Below the pieces are notes generated by a model that did not search any database, was not told the origin of the DNA, and saw nothing but the letters and a program-made list of their open reading frames with translations. 32,000 bases of DNA from an uncultured archaeon (GTDB lineage Archaea; Asgardarchaeota; Jordiarchaeia; Jordiarchaeales; Jordiarchaeaceae). Shown here piece by piece: positions 1-29,003 of the stretch. Numbering within the stretch: position 1 is the stretch's first letter; every line of letters starts with the position of its first letter. Where the stretch lies: assembly GCA_964510585.1 (NCBI GenBank), contig CAZECW010000027.1, positions 13,595 through 45,594 of the forward strand, read 5' to 3'. Position numbers and translations under genes: made by a program.

Positions 1-2
1 CT

Positions 3-1121
3 TGGCTGGATAACTATCCATACTCCAAGCTTAAGAGGTCTTGGGCAGTGGGTATCGCGGGAACCGTTCTAAACATAGTTGTGGTTTGGTTCATGGTTTA
101 TGTGGTGTTCTACCAACTGATCGGTAGCTTGGTCCCTGAGGCCAGCTTTCCGAAGCTTCTCGCGTACGGGTTCCCCATCGAAACTGCGCTTTACATTTCT
201 TCATCCGCTACTGGTATGGTCACCGGGGCTACGTTTTCCTTCGGTTTACTTTGGGTAGCAGGCACAATGTTTTGGCCCCTCTACCACGCCAAGCAGCCGA
301 AAAGGGGACTTTACAGTGTCCTTCTCGCATTCGCCATTGGGCTGACCGCTTGGTACTTTTTACTCCTTCCACCTGTCTCTCAGATGGCGCAGAACTCCGC
401 AGCAATATTAACGTTTATGGGCCTCTCAGAGCTTCAACCAGCCATGAGCACAATATACACCATTATAATCTACTACTACACAGTCTCGTGGTTCTACCTT
501 AACACTGGAGCCCTGAGAATGCTTAACTTGACTCAGTGGGTAATTTTCTTCGCACTGCTCACAATGCTAACCTGGGAGTATGAGCCTTGGATAAGGCTGA
601 AAAAACAGCCTTTGGTAGGCATGGTCGCTTTCGTCTCTTGCACGTTTCTAGGTGTGCTCTTCGGACTCGTCCTATCACAAATGGTATACACGCCGCCTAT
701 CCCCTCGTCTTACGTGTGGTTTGCGTTGGGCCAAACGTTACTGGCTCCTATGGCAGAAATTGCGAGGGAGGGTGCGAGGTGGACGGCTCCGCTAGTCTTA
801 GCAGTGTTCTTCATTATGGCAGAGTTTATCCTCTATTTCTACTTTGACAACTGGCCCAAAAAGTACAATAAACTGGTCAACATCGCGGTGAGAACTGTGA
901 TAGTCGTCCTGGGAGGGCTGGCAATGCTTTATCTATACTACCTATTCTCGGCCAGAATCATTGGCGACCCGGACATACTCACGATGCTAAGTTACCCCAT
1001 ACTCTTCCTAGACCCTAGACCACTGACAAACCCATTACCCTTCCAGCTCTGGCTCCTATGGGTTCTACTGCTACACGGATATGTATGGAGGAAATGGCCC
1101 ATCTGGAAGCCCCTAACATAA
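3..1121 (+). CDS. Multi-pass membrane protein, 5'-truncated by the window edge; possible transporter
   Basis: The frame is open from base 3 (WLDNYPYSKLKRSWAV...), upstream of the GTG at 48 used by the ORF track. It has about 10 hydrophobic segments and recurring aromatic-Pro...KQP..G motifs. No specific family recognised. Confidence 0.75.
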   Translation, partial: WLDNYPYSKLKRSWAVGIAGTVLNIVVVWFMVYVVFYQLIGSLVPEASFPKLLAYGFPIETALYISSSATGMVTGATFSFGLLWVAGTMFWPLYHAKQPKRGLYSVLLAFAIGLTAWYFLLLPPVSQMAQNSAAILTFMGLSELQPAMSTIYTIIIYYYTVSWFYLNTGALRMLNLTQWVIFFALLTMLTWEYEPWIRLKKQPLVGMVAFVSCTFLGVLFGLVLSQMVYTPPIPSSYVWFALGQTLLAPMAEIAREGARWTAPLVLAVFFIMAEFILYFYFDNWPKKYNKLVNIAVRTVIVVLGGLAMLYLYYLFSARIIGDPDILTMLSYPILFLDPRPLTNPLPFQLWLLWVLLLHGYVWRKWPIWKPLT

Positions 1122-1329: not shown

Positions 1330-2190
1330 TTGCCGTATACTGAACTCAGGGATGGTGTGAGACTGTTTTTCGAAATCCGGGGAGAAGGGCCTCCCCTTGC
1401 GATGATAGAAGGGTGGGGATACTCCCGATGGATGTGGTTTAAACAGATTAACCACTTCTCAAAAAAGTATACATGCATCGTCTTTGATAATAGGGGGGTG
1501 GGTTTGAGTGATAAGCCCGATGAACCTTATAGTGTCGAGTTGTTCGCTGATGACTTGAGGGAGCTCCTTGACCATATTGGAGTTAGTAGGGCGCACATAC
1601 TAGGGATTTCTATGGGGGGCTTTATTGCCCAAAAGTTCGCCTTAAAGTATCCGGGGAGAGTGTTGAGCCTGATCCTTGTATCCACCCACTTTGGGGGAGA
1701 AAAAGCAAGGCAAACGCCAAAGGAAACCATGGACGCTATTTTGAGTATAAGAGAGGAGGACCTTGGGGCTGGAGAAGCCTTAAAGAGAAAGATGTCCTTT
1801 GCATTTAACCCAAAATACTTAGAGGAAAACCCAGAAGAAATAGACCAGATAATATCGTGGAGAATTGAGGAAGCTCAGCCAAGATACGCTTGGCTCAGGC
1901 AGGCCGAGGCTGTCCAAAACTTCAACCTTGGAAACAAAGCATCGCAAATAAAAGCCCCCACCCTGATTGTGGCAGGCACCAATGATCGGGTTGTCCCACA
2001 CCAGAACGCCGAGCTACTACTGGAAACCATTCCCAACTCGAAACTGGTACTTTTTGAGGGGGGCTCCCACCTCCTCTTTATAGAAAACGCGGACACCTTT
2101 AACAAAGTGGTTATGAAATTTCTAAACGAGGTGGATGAAGGAGTGTTTAGCACAAGTAAAAGAAAGATAACGATAAATGTTAAGAGGTGA
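1330..2190 (+). CDS. Alpha/beta-fold serine hydrolase (3-oxoadipate enol-lactonase/arylesterase-like)
   Basis: Nucleophile elbow GISMGG, DNRGVGLS, acid residue in GTND, catalytic His in GGSH. TTG at 1330 (MPYTELRDGVRLFFE) fits the family N-terminus better than 1294. Confidence 0.9.
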   Translation: MPYTELRDGVRLFFEIRGEGPPLAMIEGWGYSRWMWFKQINHFSKKYTCIVFDNRGVGLSDKPDEPYSVELFADDLRELLDHIGVSRAHILGISMGGFIAQKFALKYPGRVLSLILVSTHFGGEKARQTPKETMDAILSIREEDLGAGEALKRKMSFAFNPKYLEENPEEIDQIISWRIEEAQPRYAWLRQAEAVQNFNLGNKASQIKAPTLIVAGTNDRVVPHQNAELLLETIPNSKLVLFEGGSHLLFIENADTFNKVVMKFLNEVDEGVFSTSKRKITINVKR

Positions 2191-2194
2191 GCGC

Positions 2195-3721
2195 ATGTCT
2201 TGGAGCTGGATTGGAGACTGGTCTGAGAGGCGGGCTTCACTAACACCCAAGAAAGAAGCCCTAATATATGAGGAAAAATCATTCACCTACGGTGAACTGA
2301 ACTCTAGGGCCGATAGACTTGCAGGATATCTCGCTAAGAAAGGTGTCGGCAAGAGAGACAGAGTCTCATACCTTCTCAGGAACTGTGTAGAATGCTATGA
2401 CACCTTCTTCGCGACAGGAAAGCTCGGAGCCATCTTGGCCCCTATGAACATAAGACTTTCTCCCAGAGAGATGACTCTCTTAGTGAAGCAAGTAAAACCA
2501 AAAGTTTTCATTTACGACCCAGAGTTCGAGGAAATCGTAAAGGAGATAAAGAAAGAGGTTAAGAGAGTCGACTTTCTTTCTATAGGCGAGGGAGGAGAGT
2601 ACGAGGCAGCCCTCGATGAAGGAGGCGAAAAGCCGAAAAGAACGCTTGCCTCAATGGAGGATCCACACTTGATGCTGTTCACCGGCGGAACCACTGGTTT
2701 GCCTAAGGGGGCTATTCTTTCCCACAGGATGATTTTCTGGAACTCAGTGAACACTATAGTTACGTGGGGAATAACTCCTGAGGACATATCACCAATAGTT
2801 TTCCCACTCTTCCACACTGGAGGGTGGAACACACTCGCAGTCCCCCTAATCCATGTTGGAGGCAAAATGATAACTTGGAGAAAATTCAACCCCGACGACG
2901 TCTTAGACGCAGTGGAAAGGTACAAGTGCACCATAGTAATAGGCGCACCAACAATGTTCCACATGATGATGAACTCGCCGAAATTCGAAAAAACAAACAT
3001 ATCCTCAGTTAGAATGTGGATATCAGGAGGCGCCCCATGTCCCCTCCCAGTTATGGAGGCGTTCTGGAAGAGGGGCGCCGTCTTCATCCAGGGCTATGGA
3101 CTAACGGAGGCGGGGCCAAACAACTTTTACATGCCAGTCGAATACATGAAGGAGAAGCACAGGTCGGTGGGGCTGCCATTCTTCCACAACGAGGTTAAAC
3201 TTGTCAACGAAAAGGGGAAAGAAGTTGGGGTAGGCGTGCCAGGAGAACTCCTCATCAGGGGACCCCACACCTTCTCAGGATACTGGGAGATGCCCGAAGA
3301 GACATCAAAAACTATAGACAAGGAAGGTTGGGTTCACACAGGAGACATAGTCATGAGGGACAGCGACGGCTTCTACTACATAGTAGACAGGAAGAAGGAC
3401 ATGTACATTAGTGGAGGCGAAAACGTATACCCAGTTGAGATTGAAAACGTAATATACCAGCACCCGAAGGTGGCAGAGGTTGCAGTCATAGGGGTTCCAG
3501 ACGAGAAGTGGGGAGAAGTGGGAAAAGCAATAATTGTGCCCAAGCCGGGAGAGACCATAACCAAGGAGGAAATAGTGGAGTTCTGCAAAGGGAAACTGGC
3601 AAAGTACAAGGTGCCGAAATACGTGGCACTTGTCAACTCGCTTCCAAAGTCACCTGCAGGAAAAATACCAAAAAAAGACCTGAGAGGGGAATACGGGAAG
3701 CCGCAGGACGAAATACCCTAG
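2195..3721 (+). CDS. AMP-forming acyl-CoA synthetase (long-chain fatty acid/aryl-CoA ligase family)
   Basis: ANL-family motifs TGGTTGLPKG, QGYGLTE, HTGD, SGGENVYPVEIE and PAGKI. ATG at 2195 follows the SD GAGGTGA. Confidence 0.93.
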   Translation: MSWSWIGDWSERRASLTPKKEALIYEEKSFTYGELNSRADRLAGYLAKKGVGKRDRVSYLLRNCVECYDTFFATGKLGAILAPMNIRLSPREMTLLVKQVKPKVFIYDPEFEEIVKEIKKEVKRVDFLSIGEGGEYEAALDEGGEKPKRTLASMEDPHLMLFTGGTTGLPKGAILSHRMIFWNSVNTIVTWGITPEDISPIVFPLFHTGGWNTLAVPLIHVGGKMITWRKFNPDDVLDAVERYKCTIVIGAPTMFHMMMNSPKFEKTNISSVRMWISGGAPCPLPVMEAFWKRGAVFIQGYGLTEAGPNNFYMPVEYMKEKHRSVGLPFFHNEVKLVNEKGKEVGVGVPGELLIRGPHTFSGYWEMPEETSKTIDKEGWVHTGDIVMRDSDGFYYIVDRKKDMYISGGENVYPVEIENVIYQHPKVAEVAVIGVPDEKWGEVGKAIIVPKPGETITKEEIVEFCKGKLAKYKVPKYVALVNSLPKSPAGKIPKKDLRGEYGKPQDEIP

Positions 3722-4740
3722 CATGGCCCCCACTTAATTACTAAAGCGTCCCACGCATAACCTATACCTGCGCTAACTAGTACCACAAGGCTTCCATCCC
3801 TTATTTTTCCGCTTCTTAAACCCAACTCTAAGGATAGTATCTGGTCGCACTGTCCCAGATGGCCGTACTCCTCGAAATAGGTTGTCTGGTTCTCTTTTAG
3901 TCCCAGCTCGCTGAGTATGTAGTTATGTGCACTGCGTTTCATATGGAGAATTGCCAGGTAGTCTATGTCTTTGACGGTGTAGCCGCTTTTCTCCAGGGCA
4001 TCGTTGATCACCTTGAGGAAGTTTTTCATTGATAGGTCGTCGAGTCTGCGCTTCATATCCTCTGGGTCTCTTACGTCAAGGTAGTGGAGTTTACGCTCCA
4101 GGGTTTCGTGGCTTGTGGGCATTACGGTGCCTCCAGCCGGTACGTAGACGTCGTCCGCGAAGGAGCCGTCAGACATGAAGGCAGCACCTAATATGTGGTT
4201 GCTGGGATGGTTTTTTCTGAGAACTGCCGCCGCGCCCCCAGCGGCTAGGTTGAACATGAACCTTGTTCTTTGGTTTTGATAATTTATGAGGTCGCAGTTT
4301 CTGTATCCTGCGGCTACAAGGACTGTGTTTATGTCCTCGTTGGCTATCATCATGTCTTTTGCCAGTTTTAAACCGACAATCATTGTTCCGCAGCGTTGAG
4401 ATATGTCGAATGCCCAAGCGTTAATTGCGCCAACCTCGTGTTGAAGCTTAATCCCGGCAGTAATCATTGGGTACTCCTTGTACTCCTCTCCAGACCATAT
4501 AACTAAGTCGATATCCTCAGGATTGACATTCCCCCTTTCAAGTGCCGCCTTTGAGGCTTCGACACCCATGGATATTGGGTGGTCTTTATCGCTTGATGGC
4601 ATAACTTTCCTTAGTATTCCCATCTTTTCCTCAACGATTTGCTTAGGTACTCCTGAAGCCCTAGCTATATCCTCGCTTGTGTGGAAACCTTTAGGTACGT
4701 AAACACCTATCGAAACAACACCCACAGATGGCTTACCCAA
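3718..4740 (-). CDS. FabH/KAS III-like condensing enzyme (3-oxoacyl synthase III family) with Cys-His-His triad
   Basis: FDISQRCGT (catalytic Cys), ILHMKRS (His), YGHLGQCDQ (His at the usual Asn position), GIGYAW C-terminal motif. TTG at 4740 follows GGTGGTG; the ORF-track start is 4776. Its stop overlaps the ligase stop (3718-3721). Confidence 0.85.
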   Translation of the reverse strand: MGKPSVGVVSIGVYVPKGFHTSEDIARASGVPKQIVEEKMGILRKVMPSSDKDHPISMGVEASKAALERGNVNPEDIDLVIWSGEEYKEYPMITAGIKLQHEVGAINAWAFDISQRCGTMIVGLKLAKDMMIANEDINTVLVAAGYRNCDLINYQNQRTRFMFNLAAGGAAAVLRKNHPSNHILGAAFMSDGSFADDVYVPAGGTVMPTSHETLERKLHYLDVRDPEDMKRRLDDLSMKNFLKVINDALEKSGYTVKDIDYLAILHMKRSAHNYILSELGLKENQTTYFEEYGHLGQCDQILSLELGLRSGKIRDGSLVVLVSAGIGYAWDALVIKWGPC

Positions 4741-5252: not shown

Positions 5253-6695
5253 GTGGCTGAGTTAAAATTGCTGGGAAAAGTCTTTAAACCCGTTTGGGAG
5301 GCTCTCGCAGTCCTTTTGGCGGGTAAATGTGAAAAGTGTGGTCGGGAACGTTTACTCTCAATTTTTGATTCATTTACTGGAAGGAGCGAATTTGTCTGTG
5401 AAGGTTGCTTGTTGGTCTCTGCTTTTTTGAAGCCTTTGATTCGCTTGTTTTTCTTCCGTATTGGTGTTGATAATAGTACACTAAGTGGGCTATTGGAGGA
5501 TGATTTGATTCGCAAGTGCATGCTTAGTGTAATTAGGGGCGTAGCTCTTTTTGGAATGAGGAATCCTCAGCCTACCGGTGCTCCGGTGACTGTTGTTTGG
5601 AACTTCACCAACAGGTGCAATCTTAACTGTTTACACTGCCATCAGGACTCCTCGGCCCACGCATCTGAACCGGAACTGACAACGTCTCAAGCCTTCAAGG
5701 TTGTTGATAACCTGGGCGAGGCGGGGGTAGCTGTTTTAACCTTTTCTGGGGGTGAACCGCTTCTACGTAGAGACGTTTACCAAGTAATCAGAAGATCTGA
5801 TGACTGCGGGATGCTCTGCACAATCGCCTCAAACGGAACCCTTATGACCCCAATGGTTGTAGAAAGGTTGGCTAGGGCGGGGATTAAGCGGGTGGAAATA
5901 GGATTGGACGGAGCAAGGGCTGAAACCCACGATTTTCTGAGAAACAAGCCTGGAAGTTTTGAAGCAACAGTTGAGGGAATAAAGAACTGCGCAAGGCAGG
6001 GCTTTGAAGAGTTGGCCACCACAATGACACTATACTCAAAAAACATCAACGAGCTTGAAGAAACAATGGAGTTAGCAGAGAAGCTGGGAGCAACTAGGTT
6101 CTATTTAAACCGACTTATACCTGCTGGTCGAGGAAGGGAATCAATACACCTTGACGTGACGCCCGAGGAAAAAATTAGAGCACTCGAAACCCTGTACAAA
6201 AAATTCTATAAAAGCATTGTTAGAGGAGGGGGCATGCAGTGCTATGCTCGGGGAATGACCTACTACGCTCGACTAGGTTATGAGCGTTCAGGTGGAAAAA
6301 TTTTCACGGTAAGCGAAGCCCTCTCTGGCTACGAGAACATGTTTCAAAGAAAGTTCGGCCTGGAAGTTTCCAAAATTGTGAGAAGGCTTGCCTCCGGTTT
6401 CGGTGGATGCTCAGCTGGCATAACCTATGCAGGGCTCACCCCATCCGGAGACCTCCTACCCTGCGTTCCCGCCCCCATAAAACTGGGAAACCTCCTAGAA
6501 AAAAGCCTAGAGGAAATTTGGGTTCACAACGAAACACTAAACTATATCAGAAACAGAAAAGATTTGAGGGGCTCCTGCAAAAAATGTGCATACAATTGGA
6601 TATGTGGCGGTTGCAGATACACCGCTTATGTGGCTACCAAAGATTGGCTGGGCCCCGACACTTCCTGTCCTTTCGGCCCAAAAATCTACGCCTAA
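5253..6695 (+). CDS. Radical SAM protein with C-terminal SPASM domain and N-terminal Cys-pair extension (PqqE/NirJ/AhbC-D-like clan)
   Basis: CNLNCLHC cluster motif and FSGGEPL. SPASM cysteines CSAG...PC...CKKC...CGGC...C. N-terminal CEKC and CEGC. Confidence 0.9.
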   Translation: MAELKLLGKVFKPVWEALAVLLAGKCEKCGRERLLSIFDSFTGRSEFVCEGCLLVSAFLKPLIRLFFFRIGVDNSTLSGLLEDDLIRKCMLSVIRGVALFGMRNPQPTGAPVTVVWNFTNRCNLNCLHCHQDSSAHASEPELTTSQAFKVVDNLGEAGVAVLTFSGGEPLLRRDVYQVIRRSDDCGMLCTIASNGTLMTPMVVERLARAGIKRVEIGLDGARAETHDFLRNKPGSFEATVEGIKNCARQGFEELATTMTLYSKNINELEETMELAEKLGATRFYLNRLIPAGRGRESIHLDVTPEEKIRALETLYKKFYKSIVRGGGMQCYARGMTYYARLGYERSGGKIFTVSEALSGYENMFQRKFGLEVSKIVRRLASGFGGCSAGITYAGLTPSGDLLPCVPAPIKLGNLLEKSLEEIWVHNETLNYIRNRKDLRGSCKKCAYNWICGGCRYTAYVATKDWLGPDTSCPFGPKIYA

Positions 6696-7124: not shown

Positions 7125-7511
7125 CTAGAATTCTTTTAAGAATCCACTATCATTCTGGAGTATACTGTAAACCTTATTCATGTCTGAATTCCAGTACATG
7201 TGAACCAGCATGTTTCGGAAACCCGCTAGGTCTGATAAATTGTTTGCTAAATCAGTTAGTATTATGTTTGATTCTGAAAGTATCTCGAAAGTTTCCTTAT
7301 AAGTTAAAGGCTTTCTATGCCCCCTTTCCGCAATTACATGGTTAGCAATATCTATTGCCGACTGAATGCTTACCAGCATGGCGTGTAAAACCATGTTTCT
7401 CTTATCTCTATCTTTTGCTAAATCCTCTTTTGAAATAGACTGATAACGCTCCCAGTCACTAAGAGACGCTTTTAATTCCTGCAAATGCTGCAGTATTCCC
7501 TCCACGTCCAT
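7125..7511 (-). CDS. hepT: HEPN (DUF86/HepT-like) ribonuclease toxin, possibly C-terminally truncated
   Basis: LAGFRNMLVHMY contains the HEPN R-X4-H motif; also AIDIANHVIA and PLTYKETFEIL. The TAG at 7125-7127 is followed in frame by ERVKDLLRK and a second TAG at 7095-7097. Confidence 0.85.
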   Translation of the reverse strand: MDVEGILQHLQELKASLSDWERYQSISKEDLAKDRDKRNMVLHAMLVSIQSAIDIANHVIAERGHRKPLTYKETFEILSESNIILTDLANNLSDLAGFRNMLVHMYWNSDMNKVYSILQNDSGFLKEF

Positions 7512-8787: not shown

Positions 8788-11652
8788 TTATTTTACTCGC
8801 CTTTTATCTAATTGTTCGATGAGGTTCATAAGTTCTTTCTTAAGTTTTTCTTTGCGTTTTAATTCTTTAGCGGTTATTACTCCCCCCTGTTCTTTTCTCT
8901 GCAATTCGTCGATTTGCATGCGGATTTCAATGAATCTGTCCCTTATGGTTTCTATCCCCTCTTTGTCTTGTGAGATCTCCCACATGGATTCTATGGTGTA
9001 GGGTACCTTGCTTAGAATTATGCTTGTTCGGATATAATCCATTTGAATCTTGTCATATCTGGGTTCTATCTGAGATTTTCTGGCTTGAAAATCCATTTCA
9101 CTAATTTTTCCTTCGCGATATTCCTGGTTCAGTTTCTGCAACTTTAAGCCCAGATTGTTGAGTTCCTCTTGGAGCTTCTCCCGTTCCCTAAGCAGTTTCA
9201 CAATTTTCTTTCTCTGAAGTGTCTCTACCTTATCCAAATCAATCAAGGAAGACAATATCTCCAATAGAGAAGCCTTTAATGTTGAAACTTCACCCTTCCA
9301 ATTTACAAGCTTTTCCCAGTTTTGCTCCTCAGCGCTAGACACAAATTCACGTAGCCTTTTTCTAATCCATTTCTCTTCTTCCACAGTGACACCACTGGTG
9401 ATACAGGTTGCGGTCAGTATATTTCCATCCTCCCGAATAAAGGTGCCGAACTCCGTCTCCAACTTTCTCAGACCGCCCTTCTTCATCTCGGCAAGGAAAG
9501 TCTTAACCGCTGACATAAAGCCCGAAACCAAAGTCGCATCCTGTTCCATCTTGAAAAAGTCAAAAGCCCACACAGTAACACCACTTGGAATGTAGTCAAC
9601 AATAATGTTCTCAAGACTAGCCATAGCCCTCAACGGAACCATGCGTCTCCTATGTACTCTACTAGCCACCATTCCCCCCACAGCCGCCAATCCCACAACA
9701 ACTCCTAAAGCGAGGTAACGTGTAATTTTCTGATTTTGCTCAGATAACATATTAGACACTAACAGGATTAAACCAGTTACCTCGGGATTAATAACCACGT
9801 AATATGGAGCCTTAAAGTTAATGGTAACAGTACCAGAAACACTCGACGCATAAAATCTTACGCCACTAGCTACGAAACGAATTTCGTGAACTCCAAAATC
9901 TGTGCCAAAATCCACAATGAAACTATAAGTACCGTTCCCATAATCCGTTTTATTATAAATAGGTAAAACCTTCGCACCCTCATAGGCCATTATTGCAGCA
10001 CCAGCCAACCCCTCCCCTGTTACATTATCATAGTAGAAAAGAGTTATTGGGACAGTATTAGGATACTCAACATGTTCAGGAAAACTAGTCACAACCAAGC
10101 CAGTAGCAATTAGAGGCACAATTTCCAGAACAGTTTCATTATATCCCACTGATAATCCATCCCTAAAACTAATCGTCACATTAAACATTCCGTGGGTGGT
10201 GGCTGTACTTCTCACATTCCAACTAAACACCACACTAGGAACACCCGACAAAGCCTTCGTATTTGTATAATTCAACCTTTGAGATGAATCATAAATATCC
10301 AGAGTCACACTTCCACTAACAGAAGCATCAAAGCTCACAGCGATCTCAAGAAAATCATCCAGGGTGGCGTTTTCAACAGGAACCCCACCAACCATAAAAC
10401 CTATGCCGGAAAGATAATTGGGAGCCGTGCAGTTAACAGTCCAAGTACCATTACCAGCAACAAAACTAATAGCATCGGGAGGGTGAGAGTCCAATGCAAC
10501 CCAATTGGCACCATCAAAAGCCATCGAGCTCGAATCACCCCAGTCTGAAGGAATACCCGTAATGTTAATATGATTAACACCAGTGCCAGTCATAGGGAAG
10601 GCGTTTTCAGCATCGATGGTAACATTCCAAAAAGCGTCACTATTATTATAAACAACAAAATTAGTTGTAGCAGTGAAATTCCTGGCGTAGGTTACGTTCC
10701 AAACATAAGAAAAACTAACAGGGGCCCACCATGTAGAAGCTACATCATAAAAGATATATCCCGTTGAAACAGGTGTTTCGCTACCGCTAATCCAGTTTCC
10801 ATTACCCCTACTGGCGTCTAAAACAGTTGAACCATTAATAGTTAAACCCACTTCTGATGGAAGAAAAATATTACTAACATTTACTTTCAGCTTAAAATCA
10901 ACATTCAACGGTGACCAGGTTCCAGACTGGTATTCGTATGCGTATCCTCCACTAGACGGTGAGACTTGTTTCCAGTAAAACTTGGAGGAGTCTATGTTTT
11001 CAATACCGATGAAAAACGTGTTATCAAATGTAGTGGAAGTGTCAAGGAATTGATGGCCAAAATCCACATCAAACCAAATGGGGTTACCAGAGGGTATAGA
11101 AATGGTTGAAACATTTTTAATTAAATTATTCGGTACGGGCACTCCACCGCTGTTAATTGCATTGTAGACATAAAAGTGACCGATGCTTCCCCCACCGGGC
11201 GACCTTAACTCAACACTAACATTATCCAGGTAGGCGTTACTCGTCAATCTAAATGACATGGCAAGAAGGCTAATTTTTGTGTCGCCGTTGTACGGGTTAG
11301 GATTTGGTTCAATTGTAGTATTTGGTGCATTAATACCAGTGAGTGTTAGGTTTGCCCAGATGATTTTCCAACCGCTGGGACAGGGAACATAAATATCTGA
11401 AGAAGTGTTCGTGTAATTTGGCACATTATCATAATTGTTTGTAATATACAATAAAGCATTTAATTGATCTCCGCTGCCCGTGTATGATTTTGTCATGTTG
11501 TCCAAGTTATTCAAGTTTAGGAAGGTGAGGGGCTGATTCGGGCTTAATGTGGCGAGTATAGCGATTGTTGAAATGGCAAAAATCAGAAAGGTTGCTAACG
11601 CTACCCTTTCTTTCAATTTTATCCTCCCAAAGATAGAATTTTTAGTCTTCAT
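8788..11652 (-). CDS. Large membrane-anchored surface protein: N-terminal signal/anchor, beta-rich ectodomain, TM helix, cytoplasmic longin-like domain, coiled-coil tail
   Basis: Hydrophobic residues ~17-36. Residues ~40-620 are Asn/Ser/Thr/aromatic-rich with about 23 N-x-S/T sequons (eye count). TM ~646-663 followed by RVHRRR. Residues ~680-800 contain DATLVSGFMSAVKTF...NWKG, a pattern I associate with Asgard longin-like domains. Residues 805-954 are a charged heptad-rich helix. Confidence 0.8.
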   Translation of the reverse strand: MKTKNSIFGRIKLKERVALATFLIFAISTIAILATLSPNQPLTFLNLNNLDNMTKSYTGSGDQLNALLYITNNYDNVPNYTNTSSDIYVPCPSGWKIIWANLTLTGINAPNTTIEPNPNPYNGDTKISLLAMSFRLTSNAYLDNVSVELRSPGGGSIGHFYVYNAINSGGVPVPNNLIKNVSTISIPSGNPIWFDVDFGHQFLDTSTTFDNTFFIGIENIDSSKFYWKQVSPSSGGYAYEYQSGTWSPLNVDFKLKVNVSNIFLPSEVGLTINGSTVLDASRGNGNWISGSETPVSTGYIFYDVASTWWAPVSFSYVWNVTYARNFTATTNFVVYNNSDAFWNVTIDAENAFPMTGTGVNHINITGIPSDWGDSSSMAFDGANWVALDSHPPDAISFVAGNGTWTVNCTAPNYLSGIGFMVGGVPVENATLDDFLEIAVSFDASVSGSVTLDIYDSSQRLNYTNTKALSGVPSVVFSWNVRSTATTHGMFNVTISFRDGLSVGYNETVLEIVPLIATGLVVTSFPEHVEYPNTVPITLFYYDNVTGEGLAGAAIMAYEGAKVLPIYNKTDYGNGTYSFIVDFGTDFGVHEIRFVASGVRFYASSVSGTVTINFKAPYYVVINPEVTGLILLVSNMLSEQNQKITRYLALGVVVGLAAVGGMVASRVHRRRMVPLRAMASLENIIVDYIPSGVTVWAFDFFKMEQDATLVSGFMSAVKTFLAEMKKGGLRKLETEFGTFIREDGNILTATCITSGVTVEEEKWIRKRLREFVSSAEEQNWEKLVNWKGEVSTLKASLLEILSSLIDLDKVETLQRKKIVKLLREREKLQEELNNLGLKLQKLNQEYREGKISEMDFQARKSQIEPRYDKIQMDYIRTSIILSKVPYTIESMWEISQDKEGIETIRDRFIEIRMQIDELQRKEQGGVITAKELKRKEKLKKELMNLIEQLDKRRVK

Positions 11653-14939: not shown

Positions 14940-16362
14940 TTACTTTACTTCTGGGCGTGTGTCTTTTAGGAAGATGACTATTGCTATTAGTGCTATACCA
15001 ACTATTACCACGAAGAGTATGGCTCCGAAGAATGCTCCGGGGAGGTTTAGTGGTGCGCTGGGTATTAGGCTGAACCACCATGCTCTGCTGACTGCGGAGA
15101 GGTAGCTTTGCCAGTAGTATATTTGGGATAGGAGGTAGGAGAATGAGGAGGTTTCTAGCGATTCCATGACTAGTGGTCCCACGGCGCCGCCTAGGTTTCC
15201 TAGGGTGTATAGGCCTCCGACTGCGAGGCCTGCCAGCATGGGTCCGATTGCTTTTGTTTCCATTGCGACTTGGAAGGATATGGGCATGGCGGAGAGTAGG
15301 AAGAATCCTAGTAGGAAGGCTGCAAGCATTATGATCCAGCCGCTCATTGTTCCTATGATGTAGACGAGTGGGGGTGTTACTATTGCTGTGAGGACTATGA
15401 AGGGTTTTCTTCTTTTTATCTTGTCTGATATTGTGGGAAGTATTAGGCATCCGAAGATTCCGCCGAAGGTGATTAATGCGCCTACTGTTCCTCCTGTAAT
15501 TTGTGACTGTGACACTATGATGGGTAGAAGGTAGGGGTTGGCTTGGGCGAGGTATACTTCAACGAATTTTTCGAAGATTGGTGCGTTTGAGGAGACAATG
15601 TTTTGTATCCAGGTTGTCAGGCCCAAATAAACTATGAAGCCTAAAGAATAGTGCCGAGAGTACCCAGAACTGTCTAACTCTTAGTATTCGACTGAAGCCC
15701 GCTCTTAGGGGTACCTCCTTTTCCTCAACTCTTGGTTCTGGGGGTAGGGGTGGCTTCTCTCTGGCAACTGCAAAGAATATGATTGCAACAATGACTGCCA
15801 TAAATCCGTAAATGAGGCTGAGGTTTCTTAGGCTCTCATAAGCGTTGAAAAGTGGGTTGCCTAACATGTTTACGAGCACTGGGGAGAGGAATAGTGGAAC
15901 CATTAGGCCCACGAATTGGGATAGCACTCCTATCCCTTGGGCTGTTGCGCCTTCCTTGAAGGGGAACCATTGGGTTGTTAGTTTTGAGATGCCGTCAAAA
16001 ACAAAGAGTCCTACTGTTGTTATTGCTATTTGGCTAATCAGCAAAGTTACTAGGTCTGGTGCGAAGGCTCTCAAAACTCCTATTACTGCGAAGGCAATGG
16101 CACTAAACCCGCTGGTTTTTTTCCATCCCCACTTATCAACACCTGCACCGAAGGGAAACGATAGTACGAAGGACACCAATGGGCCTTCGATGGTTAGGAG
16201 GGCAACTAAGCTTTGATCTGCAAACGGTCCGAATGCGAAGGCCACTGTTTGAGGTATTGTTGCGAACTCAATCCATAGGAGCTGTGTAATGAAGAAAACA
16301 AGGCAATAGGAGCCGAGTACTGCCCACCGCCGTCTATATACTTGGTAAGTGGCTTTGCTCAT
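14940..16362 (-). pseudogene. MFS transporter split by a single frameshift near 15643-15646
   Basis: The N-half ORF (15559-16362) has the MFS motif-A-like GAGVDKWGWKK and PPLPP after TM6. The C-half ORF (14940-15626) has SDKIKRRKP. Removing one T from TTC TTT AGG CTT joins them as ...LFLGFIVYLGLTTW. SD GAGGT precedes ATG 16362. Confidence 0.85.
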
Positions 16363-18281: not shown

Positions 18282-19247
18282 TTGTTAGTTTTGGGAGTCG
18301 ATGGTGGGGCCACAAAGACTGCATGTGTGGTGGCTGACGAAAATTTTAAGATTTTAGGTGTGGGAGTAGCTGGCTCCAGTAACTACCACGTGGTAGGTGT
18401 GGAAGCAGCCCAGAAGAGTGTTGCCCTCGCCCTCAAGCGAGCCATTCCCCCAAAGCTCAAGCACAACATTGATGTTTGCTGTTTTGGTATAGGTGGGCTT
18501 AACACTAAACGGGACGAAAAGATAATCTCAGGATTTATAAAGCCCCTAGTGTCTGCCAGAAGACAAATATTCGTTAATGATGTAGTTATCGCCTTCCACG
18601 CCGCTACCTGTGGCGAACCCGGAATCGTTATGGTTGCGGGAACGGGATCCATAGCCTACGGAGTTAACCAAGAGGGAAGGGAAGGGGTGGCAGGAGGCTG
18701 GGGATGGCTCATAGGAGACGAGGGAAGCGCATTTTACATAGCTAAAAGAGCATTAATGAGTGCTTCCAAAGCTTATGACGGCCGCGGAAAACCTACAAGC
18801 CTTGTGGAACTCTTCTGCAATCATCTAAAAATTTCTAAGTTTGAAAACATTATCTCCAAAATTTATGAGGAAATGAAGCCCCGCGACCTGGCATCCCTAG
18901 CTCCCCTAGTTACGCAAGCCGCCCAAAACGGAGACGAGGTAGCCCAAAAAATATTGGAGGATGCGGCGAGGGAGCTGGCACTAACAGTTAAAGCCCTAGC
19001 AGAAAGACTAAACATGAAGGGTCGCTTCACCGTGGGAGCGGCGGGCGGCGTTTTCAAATCCCAACCGGTGTGGAGATTCTTCCAGAGCGAAGTTCAAAAA
19101 CAGGTTCCCGGAGCAGAGTTAACTAAACCCTTGGAGTATCCTGTGATTGGGGCCCTAATAATGGGATTCAGAGATCAGAGGGTGATGGTAACTCCAGAGG
19201 TTAGGGAGAAACTGGAAAAGAGTTTGAAAACCTGGCTTGAAAACTAG
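18282..19247 (+). CDS. BadF/BadG/BcrA/BcrD (ASKHA) family sugar kinase, probable N-acetylglucosamine kinase
   Basis: GVDGGATKT phosphate-1 motif, VNDVVIA, AGTGS, GGWGWLIGDEGS, GGVF. Adjacent to nagA and a SIS deaminase. Confidence 0.85.
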   Translation: MLVLGVDGGATKTACVVADENFKILGVGVAGSSNYHVVGVEAAQKSVALALKRAIPPKLKHNIDVCCFGIGGLNTKRDEKIISGFIKPLVSARRQIFVNDVVIAFHAATCGEPGIVMVAGTGSIAYGVNQEGREGVAGGWGWLIGDEGSAFYIAKRALMSASKAYDGRGKPTSLVELFCNHLKISKFENIISKIYEEMKPRDLASLAPLVTQAAQNGDEVAQKILEDAARELALTVKALAERLNMKGRFTVGAAGGVFKSQPVWRFFQSEVQKQVPGAELTKPLEYPVIGALIMGFRDQRVMVTPEVREKLEKSLKTWLEN

Positions 19248-19250
19248 TTG

Positions 19251-20282
19251 TCATATTTTTACAACTTTTTTCAGGTGGCGGGGAGCGTCCGGGTTTAGAC
19301 CTCTACTCACACAGTAGTGGTAGGCAAATAGCTGCAAAGGAATTATCTGGATCGTGGGGGAGAGTATGTCATCCACTTTGGGGGTGGCGAGGGTTTGGGT
19401 GGCTGGTACGGTGGCTCCGCTTGTTACTGCTAGAACTTTGGCCCCCTTCTCCTTTATCTCTTTGATGAGTTCTACGTATTCATTGCTAGGTCTTTCTGGA
19501 ACCAAGCATATTGCAAGGGTTTTCTCATCAACTACTGCCATGGGGCCGTGTCTAAACTCTAGCGGGTGGTAGGCTTCCGAGTGAACGTAGGATGTTTCCT
19601 TGAGTTTTAGGCTTCCCTCAAGGGAGACCCCATAGCTTGAGCCCCCGCCCAGGAAAATAAATTTCTGCTCCTCGCAGTTTAGCGCTAGTTCACGCATCTT
19701 TTCGTTCAGGGTGAGGGTTTTTTGAGCAAGTTTAGGTATTCTTCTTGCCTGGCTTAACTGTTTTCCCACTTCTTTGCCCTGGGTTTCGGCGTAGTGGAGT
19801 GCTAGGAGCTGTAGGGCGTAGACTTGGGTGGTGAAGGTTTTCGTCATTATCACACTTTTCTCTTCTCCGGCGTTGACTGTTATTGCCAGTTTTGAGTTTC
19901 TGGCCATGCTGCTTTCGCGGGTGTTTGTGATGCTTACTGTGAGTGCTCCGAGCTGGTTTGCTTTGGAGATTGCTCTTACGGTTTCGGTGGTTTCCCCCGA
20001 GCGGGAGACTCCTAAGGCTACCGCTTGACTTTTGGCTTGTGGTGGGGGATACTCGTAGAACTCGGAGGAGGGTGTAACGTATGCGTCAACTTGGGCATAG
20101 GTTTCTAGGGCGAATTTTCCGCAGAGGCAAATATAATGTGAGGAACCGCACCCAAAAAGGTAGAATCTATACTCTTTTTCGGAGAGAATTTTAGCAACCT
20201 TCCCAATGTTTTCTTCCTCAAGGAGGGTTCTCATGAGAGCGTCGGGCTGCTCATAAATTTCCCTCAGCATATAGTGTTCCAT
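19251..20282 (-). CDS. Double-SIS-domain protein without a glutaminase domain, probable glucosamine-6-phosphate deaminase (isomerising, GlmD type)
   Basis: MLREIYEQP, GCGSS, VSRSGETTET, EKSVIMTKTFT, EGSLKLKETSY, EFRHGP, NPDAPRHLKKVV. No N-terminal amidotransferase domain. Confidence 0.85.
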   Translation of the reverse strand: MEHYMLREIYEQPDALMRTLLEEENIGKVAKILSEKEYRFYLFGCGSSHYICLCGKFALETYAQVDAYVTPSSEFYEYPPPQAKSQAVALGVSRSGETTETVRAISKANQLGALTVSITNTRESSMARNSKLAITVNAGEEKSVIMTKTFTTQVYALQLLALHYAETQGKEVGKQLSQARRIPKLAQKTLTLNEKMRELALNCEEQKFIFLGGGSSYGVSLEGSLKLKETSYVHSEAYHPLEFRHGPMAVVDEKTLAICLVPERPSNEYVELIKEIKEKGAKVLAVTSGATVPATQTLATPKVDDILSPTIQIIPLQLFAYHYCVSRGLNPDAPRHLKKVVKI

Positions 20283-20783
20283 TTTTACACCTCACCCTTG
20301 CACCTGAAAAAAGGGGGAAGAGGGACTCCGCCTTCTTAAAAGGCCAAACATTCGGGAATCCGATATTCTTCCCTGGAGATTGAAAAATGGGGGGTTTCCC
20401 ACTGAACAGTGAATGGGGGTTTTAATCCAATTATGCGTCTTATTATATTTTTCAATTCTTCTCGCCCTTAAAAAGATGAGGGCTTCTTCACAGTTACAAT
20501 TGGACACAGTGCTTCCTTGGCATATTTTACTTTTTTCAAAAAAATGGTTTTAATTCTGAAAATTTTTCAAATTTGCATTGTAAAATTGCAAAAAATTCAC
20601 CAAACATGCCAAAAAAGCAAAAATTAAAAACCGTGCAGCACAGCGTAAACACTCAAAATTCTTAAATAGTATCCCGCCCATATCAGGAGTTTAAACTAGT
20701 TCAACTTACACTGCCTCTAATGCCTGGAATTGAGCTTCTGTTCTGGGACACCCTCCATCAAATTGGGTTTTTGGTGATTTTTC

Positions 20784-21968
20784 ATGGTTAAGGAAACCCT
20801 TGCAGTTAGGTGTGGTAGAATACTTACACCCTCAAGAGAGATAAGTGACGGTATCATTCTAGTTGAGGGAAGCAGAATAGTTTCCCTAGGTGTTGATGGT
20901 GAATTAACTATTCCAAGGGGTGCCAAAACTTTAAACTTTGGGGACAAAATAGCTGTCCCCGGGTTCTTGGACATTCACATTCATGGGGGAGGAGGAAGCG
21001 ATGTAATGGAAGCTTCAGAAAAGGCAGCCATAGATTTAGCACTTTTTGCATCTAGCCACGGGGTGACATCCATTCTCCCCTCAACAGTCTCCGCCCCTCA
21101 CAGCAGCCTCTTGAAAGTTGTCAGGGTTCTTGGGGAAATGGTGGGGAGGGAAACGGGAGGAGCTGAAGTACTGGGAATCAATCTGGAAGGACCATACATT
21201 AATCCTAAAATGCGGGGAGCCCACAACGCCAAACACATTAGGCTCCCTTCAGTGAGAGAGTTTAAAGATTTGTGGGAGGCGTCAGGCGAGAAGCTGAAAA
21301 TAGTGACACTGGCTCCAGAGTTGGAGGGTGCTGAGAACCTTTTGGCTGAGCTTCAGAAACTGGGAGTGGTGGCCGCAGTTGGCCACTCAGACGCCGCCTA
21401 CAGTGAAGTCATGGAAGCAGTCACTCTTGGTCTCAGCCACGCAACCCACACTTTTAATGGAATGAGAGGGTTCCACCACAGGGAGCCTGGGACAGTGGGA
21501 GCGGCTCTACTTTGTGAGAAGCTAACAGCCGAGGTTATTTCTGACAATATTCACGTGCACCCAGAAGCAGTAAGACTGTTAACCAAGGTGAAGGATCCCA
21601 GCCTCATAGTTCTAGTCACTGACTCAATTATGGCTGCTGGCATGCCCGACGGTGAGTATCGATTGGGGAATCGGAGAGTTACCGTGAAAAACGGTGTTTG
21701 TAGGCTGAAATCCGGAAGCCTTGCTGGAAGCACTCTAACAATGGAGACCGCCATAAGAAACACTGTACGAGCTGCGGGTCTCCCCTTACAGGTGGTTTTA
21801 GGAATGGCTACTGTAAACCCTGCAAGAGTTATTGGTGTCGATGACAGGAAGGGAAGTTTGGCGCCGGGTAAAGACGCCGATATAACTATAATAGACAGTG
21901 AGGTAAACGTTTACGCCACAATAGTGAAGGGAAAAATGGTTTATGGGAAGGTTTTATTGGGTAAGTAG
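20784..21968 (+). CDS. nagA: N-acetylglucosamine-6-phosphate deacetylase
   Basis: PGFLDIHIHG, NLEGPYI, GAH, VGHS, ATHTFNGM, SDNIHVHP, LVTDS, LAGSTLTM, NPA. Confidence 0.93.
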   Translation: MVKETLAVRCGRILTPSREISDGIILVEGSRIVSLGVDGELTIPRGAKTLNFGDKIAVPGFLDIHIHGGGGSDVMEASEKAAIDLALFASSHGVTSILPSTVSAPHSSLLKVVRVLGEMVGRETGGAEVLGINLEGPYINPKMRGAHNAKHIRLPSVREFKDLWEASGEKLKIVTLAPELEGAENLLAELQKLGVVAAVGHSDAAYSEVMEAVTLGLSHATHTFNGMRGFHHREPGTVGAALLCEKLTAEVISDNIHVHPEAVRLLTKVKDPSLIVLVTDSIMAAGMPDGEYRLGNRRVTVKNGVCRLKSGSLAGSTLTMETAIRNTVRAAGLPLQVVLGMATVNPARVIGVDDRKGSLAPGKDADITIIDSEVNVYATIVKGKMVYGKVLLGK

Positions 21969-22357: not shown

Positions 22358-22861
22358 TTATTTTATGGGTTCCACTCCGATTATGTCGCTTAGTTTTCCT
22401 TCGGGTTTTTCCTTCCAGACTGCTTGGACTCTCATTCCTATGTGTGCTTCCTCAGGCTTGGCGTTCAGTAGTATTGTTGTGTATTTTGAGTTGGTGCCGT
22501 CAAAATTGACGAGTACCATTATTAGTCTCTCTCCTTCCTTGAGCCAACCCATTTCCACAGGATCCATTCCTAAAACCTTTACTTGTCCCTTCTTTACCGC
22601 CTGACTCAAAGTGAAGGACTTAACTGTGCCCTTATCACTAACTGTCACTCGGGCGTCTATTTTTCTCCAGCATCTACCACAAATATTTCTCATTGGCACA
22701 TATACGAATCCGCAGCCAGTACACAATGATCCAATTATTTTCTTCTGCTTAAATCCCTCAAGGAGCTCCTGGTAGAGCGTAGGTGCCTTATAAACGTAGG
22801 AGCCTACGGGCCACACGCCTTCCACTGCAATTGTTTCTTTTCTTACCTTTTTCGACATCAT
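22358..22861 (-). CDS. DUF35-family Zn-ribbon/OB-fold protein
   Basis: GSLCTGCGFVYVPMRNICGRC, GTVKSFT, HIGMRVQAVW. Last gene of the thiolase-like operon. Confidence 0.88.
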   Translation of the reverse strand: MMSKKVRKETIAVEGVWPVGSYVYKAPTLYQELLEGFKQKKIIGSLCTGCGFVYVPMRNICGRCWRKIDARVTVSDKGTVKSFTLSQAVKKGQVKVLGMDPVEMGWLKEGERLIMVLVNFDGTNSKYTTILLNAKPEEAHIGMRVQAVWKEKPEGKLSDIIGVEPIK

Positions 22862-22862
22862 C

Positions 22863-24119
22863 TCACCACCTTAATCTTGGTGTATCCCCCAGAACTGTTA
22901 CTACTGTGAAGTTGGTTGAGCCTCCCCAACCGTGTGCTACTGCGTTCTTTACGTCTTTAGGCACTTGGTGTTCTTCAGCTTTACCCATTATTTGTAGGGC
23001 GCACTCCGCTACTCTCTGCATTGCTGAGGAGCCTATGGCATTGGTTGAGAGCACGCCTCCTGAGGGGTCGATTGGCAATTTGCCATCTATTTCTGTTTCT
23101 CCCTCCTCGAGGGGAATCCAGGCCTTTCCGTCGTCAAAGAGAAGAAGTCTCTCCGAATACATCAGTTCCTGGTGTGGGAATGGTTGGTAAATCTCAGCTA
23201 CATCAATCTCTTCTCTGGGATTCTTTATCCCAGCCATACGGTAGGCCTTCATCGCCGCAATTCGACACTGCATCTGCTCCGAAGTATCCAATATGGATAC
23301 TCCTTGAGCGTTTTCCGCCTGCTGATTCTCCTCATCGGCGCAAGCCGCAAGACCTCTCACCCAAGCTGGTCTATCAGCTTTCCTCGCTATTTCTTCAGAT
23401 GCAATCACAATGGCTGAGGCTCCATCACTTGCTGGGCAAATGTGTCCAAGCCTTAATGGATAAGCAACAATTTCGCCAAACCGGGGATGTTTTGCTAGGG
23501 ATTCAGCAGTGCAGTTGGGCCACTGAAGATGGGCATACTTATTTTTGGCGGCGTTTCTCCTTGATTTGGCGGCAACCATATCCAAATGTTCGATTTTGCA
23601 TCCAGAGCGGTGCATGTACTCACATGCCTGGTATGCAGAAACGCCTGCGGCTGCGCCAACTCCTCCACCATAGGCAAAGCTGGTTCTTACATCAACTCCA
23701 TTTGCAAGTAGGTGGAACATGTTTGCTAGTCCCACATGGGATAGCCCCATTGTTGCCCCGGGCTCTTTGCTATCTGAGTGTTTTTCAAATCCTATTGCTA
23801 GGACAGTGTCGAAGAGTCCTGAAGCTACCTGGTACATTCCACACTGGGCTACTGAGCCTCCGGTTGTGCCTCCAGTAGCTATTCTGAGTACTGGTTTGCC
23901 CGGTGCGGCGAAGAGGTCTCCACTCCACAATTCTGCTTGGCAGATGCCTCCAAAGCCTTGCATGTTCCCTATGGCAATGGCGTCTATGTCCTCGGGGCCT
24001 AGTTCGGCATCCTCTAGGGCCTTCCAGGCCGCCTCTGCTATCATTTCTGCAGCGTTAATGTCTCTCCTTATTCCATGTTTGGTTTGTCCAACACCAATTA
24101 CTGCAATGTTTCTCCACAC
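22863..24119 (-). CDS. SCP2-thiolase-fold protein lacking the nucleophilic Cys (Ltp3-like, probable aldolase subunit)
   Basis: IAVIGVGQT; GKPVLRIATGGTTGGS with Gly at the usual Cys position; CPASDGA; AEIYQPFPHQE; PSGGVLSTNAIG. The GTG start shares one base with the upstream TAG. Confidence 0.85.
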   Translation of the reverse strand: MWRNIAVIGVGQTKHGIRRDINAAEMIAEAAWKALEDAELGPEDIDAIAIGNMQGFGGICQAELWSGDLFAAPGKPVLRIATGGTTGGSVAQCGMYQVASGLFDTVLAIGFEKHSDSKEPGATMGLSHVGLANMFHLLANGVDVRTSFAYGGGVGAAAGVSAYQACEYMHRSGCKIEHLDMVAAKSRRNAAKNKYAHLQWPNCTAESLAKHPRFGEIVAYPLRLGHICPASDGASAIVIASEEIARKADRPAWVRGLAACADEENQQAENAQGVSILDTSEQMQCRIAAMKAYRMAGIKNPREEIDVAEIYQPFPHQELMYSERLLLFDDGKAWIPLEEGETEIDGKLPIDPSGGVLSTNAIGSSAMQRVAECALQIMGKAEEHQVPKDVKNAVAHGWGGSTNFTVVTVLGDTPRLRW

Positions 24120-25270: not shown

Positions 25271-25279
25271 GTTCTCACC

Positions 25280-25753
25280 TTACTTCTCGGGTTTGAATCC
25301 TTTAATGTCGGAGATTTGGCCTTTGGTCTCCTCCTGCCAGACTACTTTCACTGTGATGCCCTCCTTAAGTTTCTCTGGCTCCACATCTATTAGGGGCATA
25401 AATATTGTTGAATCCGCGTCTTCAAGCTTTATGGCTCCAATCGCTTTAGGCTTTTCCAGATCTCGAAAGTTGCCGTTGCCGTCCAGTTCAACATAGGCAG
25501 TTGTGTAGCCTACCAGAACTCCCCTACCGGAAAGTTCCACTAGGTTGTTTGCGTCCATTTTTGCTGAGCACTTACTACACCATGCTCTTGGAGGAACATA
25601 GGTATAATTGCACTTGGAACATTTGGCTCCCAATATTTTCTTGTTTCCCAGTTCTTTGATGAATCTGTCCATGAGTTCTCCCACAGACCACCTGAACCCG
25701 GCGACAACTGGAATTCCCTTAACCGGTATAACTTCCTCTTTTAATATTTTCAC
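25280..25753 (-). CDS. DUF35-family Zn-ribbon/OB-fold protein
   Basis: LGAKCSKCNYTYVPPRAWCSKC, GRGVLVGYT, VKVVWQEE. First gene of the operon. Confidence 0.88.
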   Translation of the reverse strand: MKILKEEVIPVKGIPVVAGFRWSVGELMDRFIKELGNKKILGAKCSKCNYTYVPPRAWCSKCSAKMDANNLVELSGRGVLVGYTTAYVELDGNGNFRDLEKPKAIGAIKLEDADSTIFMPLIDVEPEKLKEGITVKVVWQEETKGQISDIKGFKPEK

Positions 25754-27959: not shown

Positions 27960-27973
27960 CCTTTTTTGCCTCC

Positions 27974-28612: not shown

Positions 28613-28916
28613 AAATCATATCCTCCTTAGGGAAGTTAATCAAGTATTAGCCTTTTTCTAATTATTAAATATTACTATTAATTATTTTTGGCGTGGGAGA
28701 AAACTGTTTTTAGCCGTTTTTTGGTTTCCCGGGAGGGAATGATTAGTTTGTGGGACGAAAATCTCTTCTTTTAAGTTCGTCTTTTGATAAAAATGTTTAT
28801 CGGGGCTGCTTCTGAAAATGTGAGTTAGCCTACTTTGCTGTTCCTTTTTTTGGGTTTGGATCGATTTCCTACGCTTTTTTGGGGTGAGGGTTTCAAGTGT
28901 TTGTTTCCACTTTTTA

Positions 28917-28933
28917 GTGAAAAGATTTATTTA
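28917..28933 (+). promoter_or_regulatory. BRE/TATA upstream of the RHH gene
   Basis: GTGAAAAGA-TTTATTTA, nearly the same as GTGCAAAAGA-TTTATATA upstream of padR. Confidence 0.45.
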
Positions 28934-29003
28934 GTTCCTTTACTACAATAATATGCAGTTTATGTATGGCGATTTGTATGGCACTAAATGGGTGTGGTTT
29001 TCT

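Follow-up and report, generated by a model that had tools for sequence, protein, structure and literature searches.

A conserved gene module of Asgard archaea centred on a KAS III-fold enzyme, with a possible role in the breakdown of 3-hydroxyacyl esters

The 32,000 nucleotides of DNA analysed here (the window) span positions 13,595 to 45,594 of contig CAZECW010000027.1 (assembly GCA_964510585.1), from a Jordarchaeia/Freyarchaeota Asgard archaeon whose genome is 96% complete. An original prediction, made from the letters of the window, had placed three packed acyl-handling genes between positions 1330 and 4740; the open reading frames (ORFs) of a hydrolase, an acyl-CoA ligase and a KAS III-like enzyme (KS) are all present there. 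Together with a membrane protein they make up a module conserved in Asgard archaea and related to gene clusters of bacteria. The module is likely catabolic in direction, and not metabolite-building. By analogy with the bacterial relatives, a substrate of the poly(3-hydroxybutyrate) (PHB) type is slightly favoured. The chances seem evenly balanced for the full mechanism proposed below, in which (R)-3-hydroxyacyl esters, most likely PHB-derived 3-hydroxybutyrate (3HB) oligomers, would be taken up, activated with CoA and cleaved by thiolysis. Ester thiolysis as the reaction of KS is a tentative assignment from its predicted triad and gene context, to which we give somewhat less than an even chance.

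Conservation and gene order in Asgard archaea

Genes exceeding the cut-off of the KS family model, PRK06840, are found in 40 of 151 Asgard genomes, as well as in 25/301 Bacillota, 47/81 Thermotogota, 3/151 Myxococcota and 1/351 Pseudomonadota genomes. The neighbourhoods of 30 Asgard KS loci, belonging to five families, have been compared. A ligase gene lies near KS in 29 of the 30 and a hydrolase gene in 25, which bears out the expected co-occurrence of the three genes; membrane protein, MaoC and Liv-type ATP-binding cassette (ABC) importer genes are found in 19, 12 and 5 loci, respectively. The three-gene module originally proposed is thus co-conserved, and incomplete, as the membrane protein is a fourth member. 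Clustering of ligase and KS genes is not due to chance, since KS-adjacent ligases of other Asgard genomes are 49-56% identical to that of the window (84-91% within Jordarchaeia), and the approximately 20 other ligase paralogs of the same genome at most 36.6%.

In a tree of KS sequences, 18 of 18 enzymes from Asgard loci fall in one clade (100/99), within which they group according to host family and Jordarchaeia diverge first. The clade is not purely Asgard, because it encloses a smaller one made up of eight additional sequences, of which one is labelled Deltaproteobacteria (locus L143). Leaving root and donor aside, the pattern fits one early acquisition followed by later exchange. One Asgard family (L039, L041, L042) features genes for a GH5 glycosidase, DinB and two major facilitator superfamily (MFS) proteins between ligase and KS. 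Nothing on Asgard FabH-like enzymes was found in the literature searched.

The hydrolase gene occupies positions 1330 to 2190 of the plus strand (likely TTG start at 1330, stop at 2190, 286 amino acids, Pfam Abhydrolase_1), and is followed on the same strand by the ligase gene at 2195 to 3721 (likely ATG start at 2195, stop at 3721, 508 amino acids, PRK06187). The KS gene runs on the minus strand from a likely TTG start at 4740 to 3718 (340 amino acids). Ligase and KS genes are convergent, as had been noticed, and their TAG stop codons overlap in the common bases CTAG at 3718-3721. This layout is restricted to Jordarchaeia, other Asgard loci being mostly co-directional, and the overlap is therefore without meaning. 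Scans for promoters and terminators gave signals no better than those of shuffled sequence. The closest named loci, 92-93% identical, come from Jordarchaeia and Freyarchaeota metagenome-assembled genomes.

The fourth gene of the module encodes a multi-pass membrane protein of 444 amino acids. It ends at position 1121 of the window, where its 3' part (1 to 1121, plus strand) is found; the full ORF (contig coordinates C27:13381-14715) starts 214 nucleotides before the window. The protein carries an internally repeated W-P..K-Q-P..G motif and fits no Pfam or NCBIfam family. Its structural model, of moderate quality (predicted local distance difference test score, pLDDT, 63), could not be matched by fold (best Z of 5.6 and atlas TM of 0.34), a result that does not show the fold to be new. 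The gene is found within about 8 kb of KS in its 19 Asgard loci; none of these contains the Liv-type ABC importer, which is present in five others. This mutual exclusion, and the name 'AAT family amino acid transporter' given by JGI to distant homologs, point to a putative importer standing in for the ABC system. One distant homolog is not adjacent to KS. In Jordarchaeia the membrane protein gene is preceded, upstream of the window, by genes for a second serine hydrolase and a 217-residue protein without family (G000 C27:10937-13088).

Family and predicted active site of the KAS III-like enzyme

KS is a member of PRK06840/NF005308, scoring 502.7 bits with a cut-off of 315 over positions 3-337 of the 339 of the profile hidden Markov model. 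Other models of this kind are not satisfied. KS scores 119.1 against the 292.1 required by the FabH model TIGR00747, 115.4 against 249 for PRK09352, 35.6 against 285 for PRK09258, which we take to be the OleA-type model, and 50.6 against 353 for archaeal hydroxymethylglutaryl-CoA (HMG-CoA) synthase; the likely HMG-CoA synthase of the host is a separate gene on contig C20. KS is 57-64% identical to PRK06840 members of Bacilli, found in the same gene context. The '3-oxoacyl-ACP synthase' name of the family, in which ACP stands for acyl carrier protein, is an automatic label: the family has a hidden Markov model, no described function was found for it, and PRK06840 is not named in any paper of the literature searched.

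The predicted structure of KS (pLDDT 92) has the KAS III fold of the thiolase superfamily. The Foldseek TM is 0.81, and the model superimposes on Bacillus subtilis FabHA with a VIA Z of 39.9 (root-mean-square deviation 1.9, 310 aligned residues). Searches by fold do not separate FabH, BioZ and PqsC, which all reach Z 39-40. No solved structure is a close relative of KS. The 50 tied matches listed do not include CerJ; by sequence, FabH scores above CerJ. KS thus shares with FabH the fold and the position of the catalytic cysteine, and differs in that Asn is replaced by His and FGDGAG by FNLAAG.

Residues are numbered here on the longest ORF, of 352 amino acids from the GTG at 4776, and conservation is counted over 306 homologs. 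The original observation that GHLG occupies the position of GN in FabH is correct, and the histidine replacing Asn, His306 (codon 3859-3861), is found in 306/306 homologs, as is Asp311 (codon 3844-3846). Cys129 (codon 4390-4392) is kept in 302/306, with Ser in the remaining four. His278 (codon 3943-3945) varies, being present in 278/306 and replaced by Arg in 25, among which 11 of 11 Thorarchaeota-type loci, and by Lys in three. The Cys-His-His condensing triad of the original prediction is not sustained by these counts, and the predicted triad is probably Cys129-His306-Asp311. A glutamate serving as universal base in the manner of HMG-CoA synthase or OleA has also been considered, and rejected: Glu97 is found in only 279/306 homologs and is missing from Thermotogota members, and Glu98 in 142/306.

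ChlB3 has a Cys113-His296-Asp301 triad, shared by CerJ (PMC9573744), and the spacing of its His and Asp equals that in KS (His+5 = Asp). CerJ, an ester-forming enzyme, lacks the first histidine, needed for decarboxylative condensation (PMC4425429). The GHLGQCD motif of KS likewise aligns with GHLGGGD of DpsC. The catalytic set, with Cys, His and Asp conserved and His278 apparently dispensable, therefore seems to resemble the one by which KAS III homologs transfer acyl groups. This favours acyl transfer, which the original prediction had mentioned as an alternative to condensation. CerJ, ChlB3, Pau29 and DpsC share with KS the fold, the GHxGxxD motif and the spacing of the three residues; the first histidine, lost in CerJ, is present in this KS and appears dispensable in its family. 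They differ in that they are found in actinomycete polyketide synthase clusters, which make natural products and often include an ACP, whereas KS is found in ACP-less uptake clusters. Similarity to CerJ is distant (E 6.6e-15), and weaker than to FabH.

Other KAS III-fold genes accompany the family. A divergent PRK06840 sub-clade, marked by HxNPKAH and DGHCGxxD, retains Cys, His and Asp (L113:16250-17314, L120:8357-9391, L180-L188), and a single cluster may contain KS in two or three copies. In Thorarchaeota and several bacteria the KS clusters also include a second KAS III-fold paralog, which has neither of the two histidines and is marked by TDTP, FTQ(V/I)N and GY(T/S)G (L045:16339-17409, L047, L049, L052, L106, L110-L113, L117, L163:7477-8478). 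It passes or nears the PRK09352 cut-off, yet cannot form a FabH triad. In Thorarchaeota it is accompanied by a separate ligase and by an ortholog of the hydrolase of the window.

Ligase, hydrolase and metabolic capacity of the host

The ligase features the FTGGTTGLPKG and GYGLTE motifs and scores 480.8 on PRK06187 (cut-off 476). It is the activating enzyme of the module, an acyl-CoA ligase forming adenosine monophosphate (AMP), with a class set by these matches and a substrate deduced from context. The hydrolase has the residues of a serine esterase (Ser in GISMG, Asp in GTND, His in GSHL), and its best match in the Protein Data Bank is the esterase Est1 (E 1.6e-51). The serine nucleophile, already set apart from the Asp of OleB in the original prediction, and the score of 49.7 against 241 on the haloalkane dehalogenase model set it apart from OleB; it is, from its sequence, a cytoplasmic alpha/beta serine esterase, belonging neither to OleB nor to the PhaZ family. 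Orthologs, 41-47% identical, are found in clusters with KS and ABC genes of Thorarchaeota-type genomes and of six Bacillota.

No ACP, AcpS or FabD has been found in the 96% complete host genome, in line with the expected absence of ACP, and likewise no acyl-CoA carboxyltransferase, biotin/lipoyl carrier or biotin carboxylase. The host therefore has neither malonyl-ACP nor an obvious supply of malonyl-CoA. KS as a replacement for FabH or part of type II fatty acid synthesis has been discarded, as no ACP, FabD or acetyl-CoA carboxylase was found. An ordinary FabH in a genome encoding ACP and FabD, the case named at the outset as contrary to the prediction, is not what the TIGR00747 score and these searches indicate. 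The ACP-independent, CoA-dependent archaeal module that had been predicted is thus supported, with a co-conserved ligase and no ACP found. The host genome is built for acyl-CoA breakdown: it has 25 crotonase and 16 acyl-CoA dehydrogenase matches and, next to its approximately 20 ligases, homologs of MaoC, of short-chain dehydrogenases/reductases (SDRs) and of ordinary thiolases. PhaC was not found, the best match scoring 21.7 against 365 (class III model only).

These data bear on the pathway favoured originally, an ACP-independent Claisen condensation leading to a lipid or specialised metabolite, either OleA-like head-to-head, PqsD-like, or as archaeal elongation with SDR and MaoC. The missing ACP and FabD, the His278 of this KS and the common Glu97, a potential base, agree with it, and the set of CoA-based KAS III-fold enzyme, AMP ligase and alpha/beta hydrolase is indeed reminiscent of OleABCD and PqsA/PqsD. 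SDR and MaoC of the (R) type also serve an archaeal synthesis route (10.1101/2024.07.05.601840), an ACP-free fatty-acid synthase made of KT/DUF35, ACR, MaoC-HCD and ECR (Schmerling et al.). That synthase is built on a ketothiolase/DUF35 pair, the module on a KAS III-fold enzyme. No DUF35, ketothiolase or enoyl reductase was found among the recurring neighbours of the Asgard clusters, and the thiolase/DUF35 set of the window, 18 kb from the module, is unrelated to it. Moreover, no carboxylase producing malonyl-CoA was found in the host, the OleA-type score is far below cut-off, Glu97 is missing in Thermotogota members and His278 in those of Thorarchaeota. The window has a Ser, not Asp, hydrolase and no OleD, and the recurring neighbours, among which importers and depolymerases are found, include no recognised enoyl reductase, OleB/OleD or exporter. 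Bacterial carriers, finally, should not need KS for fatty-acid synthesis. Condensation is accordingly regarded as quite improbable, and an OleA/PqsD-like pathway to specialised metabolites does not hold up in view of the score, the missing malonyl-CoA source and the catabolic neighbours.

Bacterial relatives and the link to PHB

The catabolic reading draws on the 45 bacterial KS loci that have been sampled. A Liv importer is found in 35, an FabG/PhaB-like SDR or MaoC in 33, a hydrolase in about 26 and a classical thiolase in 15. CoA is attached by a ligase (8 loci) or a family-I CoA-transferase (34 loci), never both, and the occurrence of two interchangeable CoA-attaching enzymes beside an importer argues for an uptake pathway. 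Asgard clusters have the same family and context, except that the ABC importer is mostly swapped for the unannotated membrane protein. In three loci tested (L117:13817-15544, L130:16086-17501, L132:1249-3021) a Liv-type ABC permease is fused to the hydrolase, which forms the C-terminal part. As importers, depolymerases and CoA-transferases are the neighbours conserved across five phyla, catabolism is the direction to be expected.

Several clusters point to PHB. NF050089, the family of Bacillus PhaZ, exceeds its cut-off in 13 of 25 PRK06840-positive Bacillota genomes and in 2 of 276 others, counts in which related genomes are not independent. In 13 of 22 carriers the gene lies within about 6 kb of KS. 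Extracellular short-chain polyhydroxyalkanoate (PHA) depolymerase (dPHAscl) exceeds its cut-off inside three clusters (L057, L143, L159). The deltaproteobacterial L143 combines KS, ligase, SDR and depolymerase with two PhaC-like genes, a PhaR-like gene and a symporter, and the myxobacterial L146 features, in this order, ligase, KS and a PHB_depo_C protein. Canonical extracellular PHB depolymerase was not found over its cut-off in any of 77 genomes, and has been dropped as universal partner. PhaC is present in 5 of 75 carrier genomes, none of them Asgard; the substrate would therefore be mostly external, scavenged and not stored, and a PhaC-dependent storage cycle has been set aside. NF050089 also exceeds its cut-off in Thermotogota genomes that lack PhaC (G473, G482, G487, G492 and others), hence this 'intracellular PHA depolymerase' family may describe an oligomer esterase.

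Systems of PHB mobilisation share with the clusters of bacterial relatives the depolymerase families and MaoC/SDR (PhaZ NF050089, dPHAscl, PhaJ, PhaB, PhaZa1). The classical route proceeds by hydrolysis to free 3HB, which is then oxidised, whereas the present module centres on activation with CoA and on a KAS III-fold enzyme, and the Asgard loci differ in having no recognised depolymerase. Thiolysis of PHB to 3HB-CoA has a precedent in Cupriavidus PhaZa1, according to a review (Uchino 2007, in PMC7147478). The activity of Bacillus thuringiensis phaZ is cited in PMC7236355. No paper linking a PHB depolymerase with the PRK06840 synthase and ABC genes was found in the literature searched.

Other ester lipids may be the substrates of the same kind of catabolism, with PHB used only in some bacterial lineages; acylglycerols, 3-acyloxyacyl lipids (ornithine lipid, lipid A) and glycolipid fragments are candidates. 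Three clusters include secreted Lipase_2 neighbours, for which Bacillus lipase A is a closer match than PhaZ7; their identification as PhaZ7 was abandoned, only one of the three giving a weak long-range match (E 5e-4). In addition, GH5 glycosidase and MFS genes flank KS in the Asgard family mentioned above, the window ligase passes a long-chain fatty-acid ligase model, and no PHB depolymerase was found in Asgards. PHB depolymerases are nonetheless the only substrate-specific families over cut-off in the clusters, and the CoA-transferases are of the butyrate/4-hydroxybutyrate type, which suits short acids. A general lipid substrate is consequently held to be rather unlikely.

In the converse case, KS would join hydroxyacyl-CoAs into oligoesters, as CerJ or the nonactin enzymes NonJ/NonK do, with the hydrolase editing or recycling the products. 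Ester-forming KS-like enzymes exist (CerJ, XclB/C, NonJ/K; PMC4425429), and PhaC-like genes are present in L143. The transporter, however, is of the importer type, with a substrate-binding protein, extracellular depolymerases are co-encoded, and most carriers lack PhaC, so that ester formation appears very improbable.

A proposed pathway of import, activation and thiolysis

In the pathway of import and breakdown that we propose, a short ester-acid would be taken up by the membrane protein, whose place in bacteria and some Thorarchaeota is taken by a Liv-type ABC importer. The ligase, of established class, would then join CoA to the free carboxyl of the presumed ester-acid. From its triad and context, the KAS III-fold enzyme would bind the acyl-CoA, and Cys129, activated by the His-Asp pair, would attack the internal ester. 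(R)-3-hydroxyacyl-CoA would be released and the remaining acyl group passed to a second CoA, yielding one CoA thioester per monomer with no further expense of ATP. The esterase may trim or de-cap esters by hydrolysis, and the (R)-isomer would enter beta-oxidation of the host through MaoC or an FabG/PhaB-like SDR. Genes for MaoC or SDR are found in cis in most relatives, and MaoC homologs elsewhere in the host genome. Such a mechanism would account for the constant pairing of KS with an enzyme that activates acids with CoA, and would make KS more than a duplicate in clusters that already hold a thiolase.

The same catabolic module could work differently, with KS a non-canonical thiolase splitting the C-C bond of acetoacetyl- or 3-oxoacyl-CoA after the action of esterase, ligase and SDR. 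The thiolase-superfamily fold is compatible with this, esterase, ligase, SDR and thiolase together would take an oligomer all the way to acetyl-CoA, and a classical thiolase is missing from the surroundings of KS in 30 of the 45 bacterial loci. The other 15 do have one in the same cluster, however, Thorarchaeota clusters have MaoC and not SDR, so that no 3-oxoacyl-CoA is made in cis, one oxyanion-hole histidine is missing in 28 KS members, and ordinary thiolases are present in the host. A thiolase role is, on balance, unlikely.

Several points weigh against the import and thiolysis pathway itself. No assay or structure was found for any PRK06840 member. His278 is retained in this KS and in 91% of family members, Asp does not exclude condensation, because DpsC, a condensing enzyme, also has GHLGxxD, and the overall sequence and fold of KS appear nearer to FabH/BioZ than to CerJ. 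The window has neither MaoC nor SDR in cis. Its hydrolase scores 87 bits on NF050089, with a cut-off of 300 that the hydrolases of many bacterial clusters exceed, being of a different subfamily, and KS-adjacent hydrolases in general are of mixed subfamilies, not all orthologous. No PhaZ-family (NF050089) protein or over-cut-off extracellular PHB depolymerase was found in 23 Asgard genomes, and the PHB link therefore rests on the bacterial relatives. Given the lipase-A-like and GH5 neighbours, lipid substrates fit as well.

It is possible, if doubtful, that PRK06840 is an undescribed class of KAS III-fold ester thiolases, which would cut the CoA derivatives of 3HB oligomers with CoA and spare one activation per monomer, and that, by means of an ancestral module with a new importer family, Asgards labelled Jordarchaeia, Thorarchaeota and Hodarchaeota live on polyester stored by bacteria that have died. 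New here are the case for a Cys-His-Asp triad, the census and tree of KS across Asgards, the failure to find a malonyl supply, and the membrane protein as presumed substitute for the ABC importer; of these, the triad argument, the census and the tree were looked for in the literature searched and not found. About a quarter of the sampled Asgard genomes carry a '3-oxoacyl-ACP synthase' gene, from which bacterial-type fatty-acid synthesis might wrongly be concluded for relatives of eukaryotes; its product is more likely a scavenging enzyme. If thiolysis is true, catabolism would be added to the uses of the KAS III fold, and anaerobic PHB turnover in sediments would have a route that saves energy. 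PHB hydrolysate is suggested by the module as a candidate growth substrate for Asgard enrichments. The question is directly testable, as the same module is present in cultured Bacilli and Thermotogota.

Other genes of the window

A Radical SAM/SPASM gene (5253-6695, plus strand), divergent from KS, is probably not part of the module, as it is adjacent only in close Jordarchaeia relatives. Genes on the minus strand encode a HepT-like ribonuclease (7125-7511), a 954-residue protein lacking Pfam and NCBIfam matches (8788-11652), and an MFS transporter spread over two overlapping ORFs (14940-16362; ORFs 15559-16362 and 14940-15626), possibly by frameshift. A BadF/NagK-like kinase, a SIS-domain protein and an amidohydrolase, probably involved in amino-sugar use, are encoded at 18282-21968. 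The thiolase/DUF35 set (22358-25753, minus strand) consists of two thiolase-like genes with two ChsH2/DUF35 genes on the flanks; ketothiolase/DUF35 pairs of this type have been discussed in connection with the fatty-acid or steroid metabolism of archaea. A methyltransferase system is encoded at 26811-31587 (minus strand) by two URO-D-family (MtaA-like) genes and the gene of a corrinoid protein.

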